From the NCBI GenBank assembly GCA_002787695.1, contig PCXL01000011.1:138250-202249 (forward strand): a stretch of DNA of 64,000 nucleotides, written 5' to 3'. Position 1 is the stretch's first letter; each line of letters begins with the position of its first letter. This document shows, one piece after another, positions 1,058-54,106 of the stretch. The notes under the pieces were generated by a model. That model was given only the letters and a program-made list of their open reading frames with translations, had not been told where the DNA came from and did no database searches. Position numbers and translations under genes: made by a program. This DNA is from Candidatus Zambryskibacteria bacterium CG10_big_fil_rev_8_21_14_0_10_42_12. Its GTDB lineage: Bacteria > Patescibacteriota > Minisyncoccia > Phycocordibacterales > 1-14-0-10-42-12.

Positions 1058-1100
1058 CCCCGCCTGCCAGCGCCTGAAGTCGCAGACAATGGCGGGCAGG
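1058..1100. repeat. ~43-nt imperfect palindromic hairpin repeat, copy 1 (cccgcctgcc...ggcgggcagg), inserted in a tRNA-Thr 5' fragment
   Basis: A 10-bp stem (cccgcctgcc / ggcgggcagg, one mismatch) with a 22-nt loop. It is preceded by gccgcc and followed by ttagctca, which match tRNA-Thr positions 1-6 and 8-15. A reverse-complement copy lies at 1498-1542. Confidence 0.5.
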
Positions 1101-1358
1101 TTAGCTCAAATAAAATGGGGTATGTACTACACATACGTTCTAAAAAGTCAGAAAGATTATAACTTATATGTTGGCTGGACTGATGATTTGAAAGCGCGTA
1201 TACTTGCTCATAATTCTGGTAAAGTAATTGCAACGAAACCCAGAACTCCTTTGAGTCTTGTTTATTACGAAGCATGCTTATCAAAGGAAAAAGCAATTGC
1301 ACGAGAAAAATATTTAAAGTCAGGATTTGGGCGTAAGTTTTTGAAAAGCAGAATATAA
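1089..1358 (+). CDS. GIY-YIG nuclease family protein (UPF0213-like, ~80-89 aa)
   Basis: YTYVLKSQKDYNLYVGWTDDLKARILAHN plus KYLKSGFGRKFLK are GIY-YIG hallmarks (GIY..YVG, then R, then H/N). The true start may be the ATG at 1120 (MYYTYVL). Confidence 0.75.
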   Translation: MAGRLAQIKWGMYYTYVLKSQKDYNLYVGWTDDLKARILAHNSGKVIATKPRTPLSLVYYEACLSKEKAIAREKYLKSGFGRKFLKSRI

Positions 1359-1497: not shown

Positions 1498-1542
1498 CCT
1501 GTCCGCCATTACCTGTGCGGCTTCAGGCGTTGGCAGGCAGGG
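1498..1542. repeat. ~43-nt hairpin repeat, copy 2 (inverted copy of 1058-1100, ~85% identity)
   Basis: cctgtccgccattacctgtgcggcttcaggcgttggcaggcaggg aligns to the reverse complement of copy 1. Together the two copies bracket the GIY-YIG ORF and tRNA-Thr. Confidence 0.5.
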
Positions 1543-8939: not shown

Positions 8940-9050
8940 TTATTTCTTCTTCTTTGAAGAAGCTTTCTTTTTTGCTGCAGGCTTTTTAGTTGCCTTTTTT
9001 GCTGCAGGCTTTTTAGTTGCCTTTTTTGCTGCTTTTTTCTTTGCTGGCAT
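8940..9050 (-). CDS. 36-aa lysine/alanine-rich basic protein (histone H1/Hc1-like), absent from the ORF track because it is under 60 aa
   Basis: Minus-strand ATG (9050) to TAA (8940) encodes MPAKKKAAKKATKKPAAKKATKKPAAKKKASSKKKK. It contains a perfect 27-nt tandem duplication (8974-9000 and 9001-9027). Confidence 0.5.
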   Translation of the reverse strand: MPAKKKAAKKATKKPAAKKATKKPAAKKKASSKKKK

Positions 9051-21322: not shown

Positions 21323-21393
21323 TGCGGGATCGTCTAATGGTAGGACACCAGGTTTTGGTCCTGGGTATCTAGGTTCGAGTCCTAGTCCCGCAG
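21323..21393 (+). tRNA. tRNA-Gln (anticodon UUG)
   Basis: Manual cloverleaf: acceptor tgcggga/tcccgca with the U1-A72 pair and G73 typical of tRNA-Gln, D-arm gtct-aatggta-ggac, anticodon loop ttttggt (34-36 = TTG), T-arm ctagg-ttcgagt-cctag. It is followed by hairpin tgggatat-gac-atatccca. Confidence 0.8.
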
Positions 21394-21656
21394 CCTAAAA
21401 CAAAAGATTGGGATATGACATATCCCAAGAGTATTGTTTTACTGTAGAGACAGGACTCGAACGGCGGAGCGCACAAAGTCCGAGCATAGCAATGCGAGGG
21501 CGCGAGCCGGTGCCCAGACCTTGTATGAGTGACGACGAGTACAAGAGTCGAGGGAGAGAAGCGAAGCGGTCCTAGTCCCGCAGCAATGAACAGAAGCAAG
21601 AAATAAGTCTAATGGCCAGTCTCGCCAAAGCGTGAGCCTAGGCGGATAGGACGCTT

Positions 21657-21717
21657 GGTTTTGGTCCTGGGTATCTAGGTTCGAGTCCTAGTCCCGCAGC
21701 CTAAAACAAAAGATTGG
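21657..21717 (+). repeat. 61-bp exact direct repeat of the tRNA-Gln 3' half plus flank (ggttttggtcctgg...cccgcagcctaaaacaaaagattgg); a pseudo-tRNA attachment-site-like scar
   Basis: Identical to 21351-21412. The upstream part (gtctaatgg + 32-nt insert + aggacgcttgg) resembles the tRNA-Gln D and anticodon arms but carries mutations and lacks the acceptor 5' strand. Further tRNA-Gln fragments lie at 21569-21584 (direct) and 21462-21471 (inverted T-arm). Confidence 0.55.
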
Positions 21718-21745
21718 AATAAGTGGTATTTGATATAATAGTCAT

Positions 21746-22854: not shown

Positions 22855-22862
22855 AAATATGT

Positions 22863-22907
22863 AAAGCACGAAAAAACCTCCTAAAATAGGAGGTTTTTTC
22901 GTGCTTT
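22863..22907 (+). terminator. Intrinsic terminator
   Basis: aaagcacgaaaaaacctcc-taaaat-aggaggttttttcgtgcttt is a long perfect stem with a T-run. Confidence 0.7.
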
Positions 22908-23876
22908 ATGGCTTTCCGAATATCTTTTTCGTATAGTGAACATATGGAAAAAGTGGCTAAACTAGGCATAAAGTGCGTACTCCATGGAAGTTTCAGAAAG
23001 CATTTTGATCTCATTCAACAAACGCGCCAGGTTTTTACGGATGCAGGCATAGAGGTTATCGCACCCAAACTGTCTGATATAGCAGGAGAAAAGGATGGTT
23101 TTGCATATCTTGAAGGAGAAGAAAACGCTGACCCAAGACTGATTGAACTTCTGTATCTCCACAATCTAAAAGATCTCGGACAAAATGGATTTAGTTATTT
23201 TGTAAATCCGGAAGGGTATATTGGAAAAAGTGTGTCGTACGAACTGGGTATTGCACAGCTCTCAAACATACGATGTTTTTTTATGGAAAACCCGAATGAT
23301 CATCCGGCTTATGTACATAAAAATTCTGTGTGGAAGCCTGAAAAACTTGCCGAATATATATTGGATAAAGGTGTACCACCCGACCCTCTCATCAAAAGAA
23401 ATGAAAAAGCACTTCATAAACTATGGGAAGATTTGATGGTGCCAGGTTCTATTGTGGCAGCAGGCGCGATGATTCAATATGAACCGAGGAAGACGACAGA
23501 TAAAAAGGAAATTCTCTTGGTAAAAACACACAAATGGGGAGACAGATATTCTATGGTGGGTGGAAAGGTGCGTCGAAATGAATTGTTTAAAGATGCTTTG
23601 TTGCGCGAAGTGAAAGAAGAAACTGGTCTTTCTGGGAAAGTTGATAGACATGTTTGTACCTTTGATCAAATAAAAAACTCCGGCTATTACAGATCAGGCA
23701 TTCAGCATATTTTTATTGATAACGTAGTAAAAGTGGACAGCAGACGAGTGACACTTAATGAAGAGGCGCAAGACTATATATGGATTACGGCAGAAGAAGC
23801 ACTGGCGTCTCTTCATATTGAACCAAATGCGCGACATACCATAGAGTTATATATAAATTTAATGCCACAACGATGA
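22908..23876 (+). CDS. Two-domain protein: N-terminal nucleoside 2-deoxyribosyltransferase-like (NDT/Rcl-like) fold fused to a C-terminal NUDIX hydrolase
   Basis: The C-terminus carries a perfect Nudix box, GGKVRRNELFKDALLREVKEETG (G-x5-E-x7-REVxEEtG). The N-terminus has VLHGSF (compare YLAGPFF) and GKSVSYELGIAQ (compare DSGTAFEIGYA), both typical of the NDT-like superfamily. The start may be 22944, since the terminator abuts 22908. Confidence 0.65.
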   Translation: MAFRISFSYSEHMEKVAKLGIKCVLHGSFRKHFDLIQQTRQVFTDAGIEVIAPKLSDIAGEKDGFAYLEGEENADPRLIELLYLHNLKDLGQNGFSYFVNPEGYIGKSVSYELGIAQLSNIRCFFMENPNDHPAYVHKNSVWKPEKLAEYILDKGVPPDPLIKRNEKALHKLWEDLMVPGSIVAAGAMIQYEPRKTTDKKEILLVKTHKWGDRYSMVGGKVRRNELFKDALLREVKEETGLSGKVDRHVCTFDQIKNSGYYRSGIQHIFIDNVVKVDSRRVTLNEEAQDYIWITAEEALASLHIEPNARHTIELYINLMPQR

Positions 23877-26063: not shown

Positions 26064-26187
26064 GGTCCCGTTAGAGATCACGGACGCTTGAAGGTAAAAT
26101 ATTGGATATGTATGATTACAAAAAGTTTGTTATTAATTAACTTTAGGTCGAGGACAATACGGTCCGCGTCCTATCTCTAACGGGATG
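26064..26187 (+). promoter_or_regulatory. Copy A of a ~125-nt conserved structured element: terminal inverted repeats tcccgttagagat..cggacgc / gcgtcctatctctaacggga, whose 3' arm contains the start codon of the downstream gene
   Basis: Long-range stem of about 20 bp, an internal ggac-loop-gtcc mini-hairpin just before the 3' arm, a conserved ttaattaa in the loop closing a ~10-codon uORF (MYDYKKFVIN*), and the ATG of the 26185 gene embedded in ...taacgggATGa. A second copy lies at 48269-48390. Confidence 0.5.
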
Positions 26188-46489: not shown

Positions 46490-47045
46490 TAACAGTAATA
46501 GCGGTACGGTATTAAGCGGTACCTGCCAGGAGTCACCTTGGTAGGAAGCAATGGAGGTACGAAAGTTGTATTCACATGTAGGTCGTGTGCCACAGAGCGA
46601 CGGCAAGGTCGTTCGTCTTAATCCTTCGCAAGGAAGAAGGATGAACAGGCCTGTTCCCCCTCCGGTGTTTCGGCAGGAAGTCGGCGACATTGGAGATCTC
46701 ATCGCGCTGCTTCAACACATTCGGTCGCGTCATGGAAGGAAGGTGAGAGCATGGCTCGATCCTAAGATCTGTGGCGTACTGTGTGTACTCACTGGATTCG
46801 AAGTCCAAGGGGCGAAAGATGCAGTGTGTGCGCCTGATCAGCCACCTCTGTTGTTACTCGATGATGCAAAGGGAAGTCTTTGCGCACCGAGCAGCTTCAG
46901 AGATGCGAAGGCGGATGACCCGAAGCTCCAAGAGTGGGTTCTCAGCGCCATCGTGGGACGAGCGTTTAAGCTGCGGCACTAACGAAGCCCGGTGGTCGCC
47001 TAGCCGCGACCACCGGCACCAGAAGCTTTCCGTTCGAAAGAAAAA
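46490..47045. other. GC-elevated ~550-bp segment without a convincing ORF, bounded by intrinsic terminators; candidate structured ncRNA or foreign or decayed DNA
   Basis: All six frames carry only short, overlapping ORFs with no protein-like motifs. Strong hairpins include gcccggtggtcgc-ctagc-cgcgaccaccggc (46988-47017) and a T-arm-like tgga-ttcgaag-tcca (46792). It ends at a bidirectional terminator at 47045-47075. Confidence 0.25.
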
Positions 47046-47075
47046 AGTCCAGCATGTGCTGGGCGCTTTTTTTAT
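47045..47075. terminator. Bidirectional intrinsic terminator
   Basis: aaaaaagtccagcatgtgctgggcgcttttttt. Confidence 0.65.
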
Positions 47076-48175: not shown

Positions 48176-48268
48176 AAAAACGTTAAAAATTGTCTATTTA
48201 TTGTACCGATAAGTGCTCATGTAAGCAAAACAGTTATGCACGGTTTTGTGATACAATAGCTCTCGTAT

Positions 48269-48390
48269 GAGTCCCGTTAGAGATAGCGGACGCTCAAGGA
48301 TAAAGACAGTGAATATATTAAAAGTACATTATCAACTTAATTAAGATAGGATTAAGGACACTGTGTCCGCGTCCTATCTCTAACGGGATG
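48269..48390 (+). promoter_or_regulatory. Copy B of the ~125-nt structured element (arms tcccgttagagatagcggacgc / gtccgcgtcctatctctaacggga) overlapping the start codon of the FKBP gene
   Basis: Same terminal arms as copy A (26064-26187), the ggac-actgt-gtcc mini-hairpin, a conserved ttaattaa in the loop, and the ATG of the 48388 gene embedded in ...taacgggATGa. Confidence 0.5.
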
Positions 48391-48879
48391 AGAAAATTAC
48401 ATACGCATGAATGGATTGGCGTTATTATCGCCATCACGGTGGTTGCTTTTTTAGTAATAGAAGGGGTGTTTGGTGATCTATTCAAAATTGAAGACGATCA
48501 TTCGCTTGTTAATTTAGAAAATCAAGGGGAACTTATGGATAATGAAAATACTCAGTCGCTCGGAGGACTCACTATAGAAACAATTGCAGAGGGTACTGGT
48601 GCTGAAGTGCGTGCGTTTGATGAGCTTACGGTACATTACACAGGGACACTCACAAATGGAACCGTGTTTGATAGTTCAGTTACGCGAGGTACGCCATTTA
48701 CATTTGTAATTGGTCAAGGCAGTGTTATTGCTGGTTGGGAAGAAGGTTTACTTGGTATGAAAGTTGGTGAAAAGCGACGACTTACTATTGCGCCTGAGAA
48801 AGCGTATGGCAGAGCGCAGGGACACGAATTGCAGAACGAGACGCTTGTATTTGAAGTCGAATTGCTAGACATTCAGTAA
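48388..48879 (+). CDS. FKBP-type peptidyl-prolyl cis-trans isomerase, membrane-anchored
   Basis: N-terminal transmembrane helix (WIGVIIAITVVAFLVI), then an FKBP core (VHYTGTLTNGTVFDSS...FTFVIGQGSVIAGWEEGLLGMKVGEKRRLTIAPEKAYG). Confidence 0.8.
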   Translation: MRKLHTHEWIGVIIAITVVAFLVIEGVFGDLFKIEDDHSLVNLENQGELMDNENTQSLGGLTIETIAEGTGAEVRAFDELTVHYTGTLTNGTVFDSSVTRGTPFTFVIGQGSVIAGWEEGLLGMKVGEKRRLTIAPEKAYGRAQGHELQNETLVFEVELLDIQ

Positions 48880-51958: not shown

Positions 51959-54106
51959 ATGGCAGACTCGAACATTTTCAATTTGGTCTCTGAATTTAAG
52001 CCTTCTGGAGATCAGCCGCAGGCTATAAAGGCTCTGACAGAAGGTGTTAAATCTGGTCTCAAACACCAGACGCTGTTGGGTGTGACCGGGTCGGGTAAAA
52101 CATTTACGGCGGCAAACGTGATTCAAAATATTGGCAAACCGACTCTTGTTATTGCACATAATAAAACACTCGCCGCGCAGCTCGCTCAAGAATACAAAGA
52201 ATTTTTCCCTGAAAACGCAGTGCATTATTTTGTCTCTTATTATGACTATTATCAGCCGGAGGCCTATATGCCGGTTACTGATACATATATCGAAAAAGAA
52301 GCGATGATCAATGAGGAGATTGAGCGCCTTCGTCATGCGACAACGCAAGCACTCCTTACAAGACAAGACTGTATTATTGTCGCGTCTGTTTCGTGTATCT
52401 ATGGTTTGGGTTCTCCTATTGAATACGAAAAAGTAAATATGCGGATTGAGGTCGGACAAGCAATTTCTCGTAATGACTTTGCACGAAAGCTCATTGATAT
52501 TTTTTATAAACGAACGAATGCCGACCTCACACCAGGAGAATTTCGCGCGCTTGGAAATACGGTTGAGATTATGCCGGTATCAGAGAAAATCGTGTATCGC
52601 ATAGAATTTGCCGGAAATAATATAGAACATATTACAATAATCGATGCGATTACAAGAAGTGTGTACGAAGATAATGTGCCATCCTTCTTCCTTTTTCCTG
52701 CAAAGCACTTTGTGACGCCGGAAAACGAAATAAAGCGTGCAATAAAAAGTATTAAAGAAGAACTTGCTGATAGGCTTGCGGTTTTAGAAAAAGAAGGAAA
52801 GATCTTGGAGGCTGAACGACTCAAACGTCGGACAAACTATGATCTCGCCATGATCAAAGAAGTTGGATATACAAATGGTATTGAAAATTATTCTCGCCAT
52901 TTTGATAACAGAGCTCCTGGTGAACCACCTTATACACTCCTTTCATATTTTCCACATAAATCGGATGGGAGTCCGGATTTCCTCACCATCATTGATGAAT
53001 CGCACGTCACTATTCCGCAACTCGGTGGCATGTATGCGGGGGATCAGTCTCGTAAACAAAATTTGGTAGATCACGGATTCCGTCTGCCGAGTGCCCGAGA
53101 TAACAGACCTCTTAACTTTGAAGAAGTTGAAGAGAGGCTAGGACAGCGGATTTATACGAGTGCTACACCTGGAGAATATGAGAAAGAACATTCAAAGGAT
53201 CCGGCAGGGCAAGCCCGCCTGTCAGCGCCTGAAGGCTTAGTCGATGGCGGACAGGTCGTGGAACAAGTTATTCGTCCGACAGGACTGATTGATCCGCCTA
53301 TTTTTGTGCGCGGTGTTGTAGAGAGTGGTCCGTATAAAGGTCAGATTCAAGATTTCATAAAAGAGACAGTTGAGGTAGTAAAAGGGGATGGACGAGTAAT
53401 CGCAACGACGCTCACCAAGAAAATGGCAGAAGATCTCTCTGAATATTTGAAAGAGAAAAAAATAAAAGCAGAGTATCTACACAGCGACATTAAAACCATT
53501 GAGCGTATTGAGATTTTGACCGATTTTCGCCGTGGAAAGTTTGATTGTTTGGTTGGCGTGAATCTCCTTCGAGAAGGCCTCGATCTTCCCGAGGTTGAAT
53601 TTATTGGCATTCTGGATGCAGACAAAGAAGGATTTTTGAGGAGTGAGACGTCACTTATTCAAATCATTGGTCGAGCGGCGCGAAATATAAAGGGGCGCGT
53701 AGTTCTCTATGCCGACAACATAACCGGTTCAATGGAGAGGGCAATTGGCGAGACGAATCGTCGCAGAGATATTCAGATTGCGTATAACAAAAAACATAAT
53801 ATTACGCCGAAGACAATTATCAAGAAAATTGCCGATATCACCGAGCACATGAAAAGTGATCATGATAAGGCGGTCGCGGCAGATCTCAAGCGTGATGAAA
53901 AAATCTATAAGAAAAATCCAGAAAAACTGATTCGCATCAAAGAGAAACAAATGAATGCGTCAGTGAAAATCTTGGACTTCGAAACGGCAGCGCTCTTGCG
54001 TGATGAAATTACAGTGATAATGCAAAAACTAAAACAAGAGGAAAAAGAAAGTAATAAAGTGATAAAACAGGAGAAGGAAAGGAGTCAAAAAAGGAATACT
54101 CTGTAA
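51959..54106 (+). CDS. uvrB: Excinuclease ABC subunit B
   Basis: GVTGSGKTFT Walker A, DESH, helicase motifs, and a C-terminal UVR domain (ETAALLRDEITVIMQKLKQ). Confidence 0.95.
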   Translation: MADSNIFNLVSEFKPSGDQPQAIKALTEGVKSGLKHQTLLGVTGSGKTFTAANVIQNIGKPTLVIAHNKTLAAQLAQEYKEFFPENAVHYFVSYYDYYQPEAYMPVTDTYIEKEAMINEEIERLRHATTQALLTRQDCIIVASVSCIYGLGSPIEYEKVNMRIEVGQAISRNDFARKLIDIFYKRTNADLTPGEFRALGNTVEIMPVSEKIVYRIEFAGNNIEHITIIDAITRSVYEDNVPSFFLFPAKHFVTPENEIKRAIKSIKEELADRLAVLEKEGKILEAERLKRRTNYDLAMIKEVGYTNGIENYSRHFDNRAPGEPPYTLLSYFPHKSDGSPDFLTIIDESHVTIPQLGGMYAGDQSRKQNLVDHGFRLPSARDNRPLNFEEVEERLGQRIYTSATPGEYEKEHSKDPAGQARLSAPEGLVDGGQVVEQVIRPTGLIDPPIFVRGVVESGPYKGQIQDFIKETVEVVKGDGRVIATTLTKKMAEDLSEYLKEKKIKAEYLHSDIKTIERIEILTDFRRGKFDCLVGVNLLREGLDLPEVEFIGILDADKEGFLRSETSLIQIIGRAARNIKGRVVLYADNITGSMERAIGETNRRRDIQIAYNKKHNITPKTIIKKIADITEHMKSDHDKAVAADLKRDEKIYKKNPEKLIRIKEKQMNASVKILDFETAALLRDEITVIMQKLKQEEKESNKVIKQEKERSQKRNTL

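Follow-up and report, generated by a model that had tools for sequence, protein, structure and literature searches.

A probable MITE-type insertion at the start codon of a Zambryskibacteria FKBP gene, from a family of very small elements whose full-length form carries a GIY-YIG nuclease

What kind of sequence folds into a long hairpin, occurs twice within one stretch of a bacterial genome, and holds the start codon of a protein-coding gene in one of its arms? The question is raised by an FKBP-type peptidyl-prolyl isomerase gene of a Zambryskibacteria metagenome-assembled genome (MAG), where an inverted-repeat element runs into the first codon. The analysis was centered on the window, a 64-kb stretch of contig PCXL01000011.1, in which the element at the FKBP gene is termed copy B and a second one copy A. 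We consider it very probable that copy B is a non-autonomous MITE-type copy from a family of very small elements with terminal inverted repeats (TIRs) at both ends, the full-length form of which carries a GIY-YIG nuclease.

An insertion at the FKBP start codon

The original prediction of a repeated, hairpin-forming inverted-repeat element at 48269-48390 proved genuine as to the element: the arms are inverted, the fold is strong, and the 13-nt arm core has four exact matches in the 64-kb window, all at the four arms of copies A and B. The predicted limits needed correction, as the exact ends are 48272-48388, giving an element of 117 bp. Its 5' arm (48272-48293, + strand, 22 nt) comprises the core TCCCGTTAGAGAT and the subfamily extension AG-CGGACGC, and its 3' arm (48365-48388, + strand, 24 nt) reads GTCCGCGTCC-T-ATCTCTAACGGGA. 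The 13-nt cores of these inverted arms are exactly complementary, confirming them as TIRs. An AT-rich interior (48294-48355, + strand) is unconserved among copies, and a mini-hairpin (48356-48368, + strand), formed by GGAC (48356-48359), an ACTGT loop, and GTCC (48365-48368), abuts the 3' arm. Folded as RNA, copy B reaches a predicted -45.3 kcal/mol (z = -6.6), and none of 200 shuffled sequences was equally stable; the two DNA strands yielded z values of -6.4 and -5.8. This hairpin structure can be attributed to the TIRs of a transposon.

A TGAG tetranucleotide flanks the element on both sides, at 48268-48271 and 48389-48392, as a target-site duplication. The FKBP gene (48388-48879, + strand; Pfam PF00254) encodes a protein with an N-terminal membrane anchor, and its orthologues cover the full 163 aa. 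As had been predicted, its start codon lies within the 3' arm: the ATG at 48388-48390 is composed of the last base of that arm (A) and the TG of the right-hand TGAG. Together, the element's terminal A and the duplicated TG rebuild the ATG, leaving the FKBP reading frame untouched. The original start codon persists at 48267-48269, where it now opens a 25-codon upstream ORF, MSPVRDSGRSRIKTVNILKVHYQLN, that extends into copy B (48267-48344, + strand) and ends at a TAA (48342-48344) located 43 nt 5' of the FKBP ATG. This fortuitous ORF is the entire coding content of copy B, which holds no transposition gene. A promoter-like extended -10 box, TGATACAAT (48249-48257, + strand), lies outside the element and belongs to the host, 9 nt 5' of the original ATG. 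A scan of the copy B interior for a promoter consensus found none, which gives no support to an outward-facing promoter within this copy. In the public record of the MAG, the FKBP gene begins at an internal Met, 49 codons late, and is given as 114 aa, even though orthologues align over 163 aa including the membrane anchor; the start-codon insertion probably misled the gene caller.

Orthologous loci reveal the site before insertion. All seven fetched syntenic FKBP loci (five distinct sequences, from L203, L204, L132, L128-130, and L131; 68-84% protein identity) are without the element, lacking exactly the 117 bp and one TGAG, such that a single TGAG stands at this position in the relatives. With ^ marking the junction, the empty sites read ...GTTATGCACGGTTTT(A/G)TG(C/A)TACAAT-N9-ATGAG^AAAATTACA..., where ATGAG runs straight into the FKBP coding sequence, and the filled site in the window reads ...TGATACAAT-N9-ATGAG[117 bp]TGAGAAAATTACA.... 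The -10 motif and spacing of the window are shared by the element-free loci L203, L204, and L131, while L128 has TGTTATGAT at unchanged spacing. Had the element been ancestral, it would be expected with the same flanks in all close relatives; the opposite was found, and the relatives are empty. The insertion of copy B thus took place at A^TGAG, within the first FKBP codons, and duplicated TGAG. Given seven empty orthologous loci, the 117-bp insertion and extra TGAG are, as judged from these alignments, specific to the lineage of the window.

Copy A (26066-26185, + strand, 120 bp) belongs to the same subfamily and sits at the ATG of a gene for a membrane protein of 72 aa. The repeat flanking copy A is imperfect (ATGG / TGAC), and the copy contains a promoter-like TTGAAG-17-TATGAT. 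The architecture predicted to be shared with 26064-26187 is indeed common to both copies in the layout of arms and mini-hairpin, and the arms are nearly identical, as claimed (20/22 and 24/24 positions). An alignment of the two copies, proposed along with the prediction as a means of setting arm conservation against loop divergence, gave 61% identity over the interior. Since this value comes from a gapped alignment in which shuffled sequence averaged 53% and reached at most 61%, interior identity is no better than background. The mini-hairpin had been described as carrying stem-preserving changes. The loops do differ between copies, but the GGAC/GTCC stem is identical, so there is no covariation signal and no sign of selection for structure; across 37 distinct subfamily members, the mini-hairpin is not conserved.

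A dispersed family of start-codon elements

Relatives of copy B were sought by scanning one genome per species for two arm cores spaced 75-105 nt apart. This search retrieved at least 120 loci from many classes of Patescibacteria and from Omnitrophota, Planctomycetota, Elusimicrobia, Ratteibacteria, and others. Family statistics were compiled on 123 copies with enough flanking sequence; these database copies were picked for intact arm cores, so arm conservation among them is partly built in. Two end types account for most of the set, T...A (66 copies) and C...G (54 copies). An exact 4-bp flanking repeat is present in 68/123 copies and a match of at least 3/4 positions in 82/123, compared with 0-2 exact matches in shifted control registers; TGAA/TTCA is the most commonly duplicated sequence among the 123. 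Arm variants change on both sides together, as in AGAGAC/GTCTCT, AGAAAT/ATTTCT, AGAGAA/TTCTCT, and AGAGAG/CTCTCT. A perfect, GC-rich subterminal hairpin of at least 5 bp, no more than 3 nt from one arm, occurs in 88/123 copies versus approximately 11 in shuffled interiors, and one of at least 7 bp in 62 copies versus approximately 1. The sequence of the stem varies from copy to copy.

An ORF of at least 60 codons starts at the junction ATG in 57 of the 66 T...A copies, with the old ATG retained in the left flank of 46 of these 57. Among the 41 T...A copies that could be oriented, the hairpin is gene-proximal in 37 and gene-distal in 4.

The subfamily represented in the window, in which the arms are extended by CGGACGC/GCGTCCG, was found at 54 metagenome loci. 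Its members occupy the start codons of topA, murC, murG, lepA, rplI, secE, dnaE, pgk, parB, dus, and other genes, targets that are unrelated and have only A^TGRR in common. For this subfamily, an exact 4-bp repeat was counted in 36/56 copies, interiors are unconserved, and in two sequence lineages near-identical copies are located at different genes. Insertion into essential genes implies that the element must be nearly neutral for expression. No viral contig matched either the MITE pattern or the full-length pattern, and plasmids yielded two weak protein matches only. Copy B therefore combines the features by which MITEs are recognized: TIRs, a short target-site duplication, small size without a transposition gene, filled and empty versions of the site, and dispersed copies at unrelated loci.

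Full-length elements and related nuclease systems

Full-length elements with the same ends as the short copies occur in other genomes. Each is ~290 bp long and carries one gene only, for a GIY-YIG nuclease of 86 aa with a single domain. Between the 5' repeat, (T/C)CCCGTTAGAGAT, and the start codon of this gene there are 7-8 nt; its final six codons, (F)LSLTG, fall within the 3' repeat; and the stop codon (TGA or TAA) is provided by the duplicated target. The clearest case, locus L121 from Giovannonibacteria, reads gaTGAA^TCCCGTTAGAGATcatgctatATG ... AAGCGTTTTCTATCTCTAACGGGA^TGAAaaat, with the 5' arm 8 nt before the ATG. Here, the stop codon TGA is the beginning of the duplicated TGAA and overlaps the downstream host ATG as ATGA. 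The same design was observed in L133, L138, L141, L196, L110, L005 (before ftsW), and L001, and both arms are present at 6/7 full-length genes examined. The subterminal hairpin of the short copies matches the full-length stretch encoding GKRYLKNRLKRFL, and short and full-length copies are adjacent in L005, L019, L001, L110, and L169/L196. In the fetched loci, neither a larger element nor a conventional transposase was found between such arms.

The nuclease matches the Pfam GIY-YIG family (PF01541) over residues 1-69 with E = 1.5e-16; a match to TIGR01453 is weak and below cut-off (E = 1e-5). The closest solved structure is 1ZG2, a stand-alone GIY-YIG protein. A homology search returned 4584 homologues; the 120 listed are 71-91% identical and for the most part exactly 86 aa long, with source names from several phyla.

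At L110 (1500-3470), an element occupies the G^FT prepilin cleavage site in each of three neighboring pseudopilin genes. One of these elements is a full-length GIY-YIG ORF fused in frame to the pilin leader (...KRFLSLTG^FTFLE), an arrangement from which prepilin peptidase could release the nuclease together with a normal pilin. A general hypothesis by which type IV pilin leaders are the targets and the arms specify a prepilin-peptidase site (SLTG^FT) was rejected, as it holds at L110 only, 1/54 C...G copies.

The most similar published system is that of the Ssn enzymes (cd10448, single-domain GIY-YIG), which bind hairpin repeats, termed NTS or SRM, on either side of the genes encoding them (Chenal et al., Nat Commun 2025, PMC11893778). 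Those characterized cut only single-stranded DNA, just upstream of the bound hairpin (PMC11893778), and are not known to mediate transposition. The authors noted the insertion sequence-like NTS-ssnA-NTS layout and drew an analogy to REP/RAYT systems, in a RefSeq survey where Patescibacteria go unmentioned (PMC11893778). In common with the present family are a stand-alone GIY-YIG protein of ~90 aa, a gene between inverted hairpin repeats in an insertion sequence-like layout, and repeats scattered near genes. Moreover, the Ssn repeats place a conserved, oriented sequence directly before a GC-rich hairpin, on its 5' side, which corresponds to arm plus hairpin here, read on the bottom strand. However, the SRM consensus (HGTCWY..YYVSBRH..WNVSBRG..RNCYNB) matches 0/123 elements and 0/5 full-length elements, while an NTS positive control matches. 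The ends of the elements described here also pair with each other as 13-24-nt TIRs, 4-bp duplications flank them, empty sites exist in relatives, copies lie exactly on start codons, and the C terminus of the nuclease is encoded in the repeat, whereas the Ssn study reports no end-to-end pairing terminal repeats, target duplications, empty sites, start-codon targeting, or repeat-encoded nuclease C terminus (PMC11893778).

Within the window, there is no full-length partner with these ends. The sole GIY-YIG gene (1122-1355) is an arm-less paralogue encoding 78 aa, with 49-54% identity to the TIR-element nucleases; it lacks CCCGTTAGAGAT arms and abuts tRNA-Thr (1359-1432). Gene and tRNA together are bracketed by an inverted 43-nt GC-rich repeat at 1059-1101 (+) and approximately 1499-1541 (-), a third copy of which falls within a UvrB-like ORF, in frame, at 53214-53256. 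A 12-nt sequence, ATATAAGCCGCC, is directly repeated at 1042-1053 and 1347-1358 and includes the first 6 nt of tRNA-Thr. The layout of 1042-1541, with repeats enclosing the GIY-YIG and tRNA genes, resembles NTS-ssnA-NTS.

Other features of the window were recorded in passing. The 3' part of tRNA-Gln (21323-21395) is partially duplicated at 21569-21584 and at 21647-21721, the latter with 95% identity across 75 nt, 20 nt of them downstream sequence; this arrangement (21323-21724) may be what an integrated or excised element left behind. Between PspC-like and LOG/pterin genes, 46500-47070 has 53-58% G+C against ~40-45% in the surroundings and no convincing ORF. This region returned nothing from Rfam at E ≤ 1, and at the syntenic place relatives have a called gene of 127-129 aa without a Pfam match; it could be an unrecognized structured RNA or an odd protein gene. 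A 27-bp tandem repeat at 8967-9047 has two exact copies and one 70% copy. The palindrome at 22862-22908, perfect over 22 bp and with 3 nt as its spacer, has the appearance of a bidirectional terminator.

Among better-known mobile sequences, bacterial MITEs are similar in form. The Correia elements of Neisseria are non-coding, ~100-150 bp long, and present in many copies near gene starts, with TIRs, a short target duplication, and transcripts whose hairpins RNase III can cleave; size, TIRs, duplication, non-coding nature, copy number, and proximity to gene starts all recur here. Known MITEs nevertheless derive from insertion sequences with DDE transposases and are confined to a genus or family, whereas the only candidate enzyme here is a GIY-YIG nuclease and the family spans several phyla. 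The present family also differs in inserting inside the start-codon region and rebuilding the ATG. The HUH (Y1) systems, namely REP/REPIN-RAYT and IS200/IS605, are similar in that a tiny single-domain nuclease gene sits between palindromic repeats on which the enzyme presumably acts, subterminal hairpins serve in recognition, and non-coding derivatives are distributed genome-wide. Their nucleases have the HUH fold rather than GIY-YIG, and IS200/IS605 elements have neither TIRs nor target duplications, both of which are present here. GIY-YIG homing endonucleases such as I-TevI and Seg share the catalytic domain and selfish spread into otherwise intact genes, but they possess a separate DNA-binding domain, recognize one long target, are copied by repair, and lack terminal repeats and duplications. 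With a single domain of 86 aa, many unrelated target genes, TIRs, and target-site duplications, the present elements fall outside the homing category.

Small GIY-YIG ORFs have also been described in CPR rRNA-gene insertions that are unlike group I/II introns, in a study that mentions many short insertions (<200 bp) devoid of ORFs as well, analyzing neither in more depth (PMC11270868). Going by that description, they resemble the present family in organism group, GIY-YIG ORFs, and short ORF-less forms, but terminal repeats, target duplications, and start-codon insertions are not among the features described (PMC11270868). Our search of the literature for GIY-YIG with transposon, MITE, pilin, or CPR did not return a description of the element, although papers beyond that search could exist, and a full-text search by arm sequence retrieved unrelated primers only.

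Leaderless starts, mobility, and alternative readings

The host genes of the family share a distinctive type of start. In the 66 distinct left flanks, the motif TANNNT peaks 6-9 nt before the old ATG and falls at 5-10 nt in 32/66, versus 9-11 in control windows; an SD-like motif is present in 1/66. Among long ORFs of the window, 5/49 are preceded by an SD-like motif and 21/49 by TANNNT 5-11 nt before the ATG. By these motif counts, the host genes look mostly leaderless, and leaderless-type starts appear common in the Zambryskibacteria genome of the window.

The FKBP gene itself would natively be leaderless, with a -10 box, 9 nt, and the ATG. If so, transcription would now begin at the old ATG (48267), and the 121-nt insertion would form a leader in which the arms are predicted to pair (-45 kcal/mol) and bury the real FKBP AUG, which has no SD. 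Expression is probably kept, whether by ribosomes that engage the 5'-terminal AUG and unwind the stem as they read the 25-codon upstream ORF or by RNase III, which might cut the ~22-bp stem. An upstream ORF that extends to the TAA of the 3' arm, with 4 nt left to the host ATG, occurs in 12/67 copies (300 shuffles: mean 2.7, maximum 8). Copy B is not one of them, and translational coupling through an upstream ORF ending at the host ATG was accordingly set aside as a general rule. The stop codon of its upstream ORF and the FKBP ATG are 43 nt apart, so that copy B has not kept simple termination-reinitiation coupling.

From the association of the short copies with full-length elements, we infer that the GIY-YIG nuclease is the transposase of the family. 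The 86-aa enzyme would mobilize MITE copies in trans, recognizing the 13-nt end and the adjacent GC-rich hairpin. On the bottom strand, each copy presents 5'-TCCCGTTAGAGAT-(N)-hairpin, a layout comparable to the single-stranded DNA bound by Ssn and cut just upstream (PMC11893778). The preference for positions +2 to +5 of leaderless genes might, speculatively, reflect access to melted promoter DNA. We know of no precedent for an 86-aa nuclease performing a 4-bp staggered integration. A bolder proposal, which we offer tentatively and hold to be somewhat more doubtful than probable, is that the ~290-bp relatives are autonomous DNA transposons with one 86-residue single-domain GIY-YIG protein, the host supplying the rest, and that the window copy is a deletion derivative mobilized in trans. 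Under this proposal, insertion at +2 to +5 of leaderless genes would take place possibly into single-stranded DNA of the open promoter complex; the host promoter would transcribe the element; the duplicated TGA would end its ORF; and the ribosome would be passed on via the ATGA overlap, which could explain tolerance even in essential genes. To our knowledge, the smallest insertion sequences are ~0.7 kb, and elements of ~290 bp would be shorter.

Several alternatives to a mobile element were weighed. The original prediction implied a purpose-built, RNA-like structured element, and a cis-regulatory leader acting as a translational switch, which uses a long stem to hide the start codons of genes for membrane proteins, would account for the strong predicted fold, the AUG at the base of the stem, and the occurrence of both window copies before genes for membrane-anchored proteins. 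That implication is contradicted by the flanking 4-bp duplication, the orthologous FKBP loci that lack the element, an interior that is unconserved and shows no covariation beyond the arms, downstream genes that are unrelated (including topA, murC, lepA, and dnaE) and spread across many phyla, and ends held in common with the GIY-YIG elements. Rfam likewise offers no match: at gathering thresholds, the 64-kb window contains two tRNAs only, and at E ≤ 10 the element returns only noise. An RNA leader is thus largely refuted as the origin of the element and very improbable as its explanation, while translation may well be influenced by the stem as a by-product of the insertion.

A different possibility retains the nuclease but not the movement. 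The copies could be domesticated target repeats of an Ssn-like single-strand nuclease, immobile and kept for modulating DNA uptake or recombination near particular genes, as proposed for the Neisseria NTS. Partner single-domain GIY-YIG genes flanked by the repeat and the Ssn/NTS precedent (PMC11893778) favor this reading, as do the arms of copies A and B, intact while the interiors diverged to background. Patescibacteria in general often have type IV pili and competence genes, a further point in its favor. Against it stand the absence of the published SRM consensus from all 123 copies and the signs of recent movement given by 4-bp duplications and near-identical copies at different genes, and it leaves the exact start-codon position unexplained. 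We judge it very unlikely as the primary explanation; such a role is possible as a secondary one. The four gene-distal hairpins among the 41 orientable T...A copies raised the idea of an inverton, whose arms would be recombinase sites and whose AT-rich interior would flip to switch the gene on or off. Inverted repeats around an AT-rich segment directly 5' of a gene fit this idea, as does the TTGAAG-17-TATGAT in copy A. Yet copy B has no internal promoter consensus, the host promoter lies outside the element and is kept at empty sites, no recombinase is found among the adjacent ORFs, and two orientations can arise by plain insertion either way. Target duplications and empty sites are unexpected for an inverton, which was set aside on these grounds and seems to us very improbable.

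A MITE-type insertion from a GIY-YIG-associated family remains our preferred reading. TIRs, 4-bp duplications, empty sites, and near-identical copies together constitute sequence-level evidence that repeats tied to tiny stand-alone GIY-YIG nucleases are mobile, a property previously raised for the Ssn family as an analogy only. Were the autonomous-transposon proposal true, Ssn-like nucleases would be shown to be transposases. For genome annotation, insertions of this kind mislead gene callers, and to motif hunters they look like structured RNAs. With its defined DNA hairpin partner and precise site of integration, a nuclease this small might also serve as a tool. For Patescibacteria, Omnitrophota, Planctomycetota, and other phyla, the family supplies a candidate for a minimal transposon, ~290 bp long and with a single 86-aa protein, which may reside harmlessly in the starts of essential genes by rebuilding the ATG, taking its stop codon from the target, and exploiting leaderless starts.
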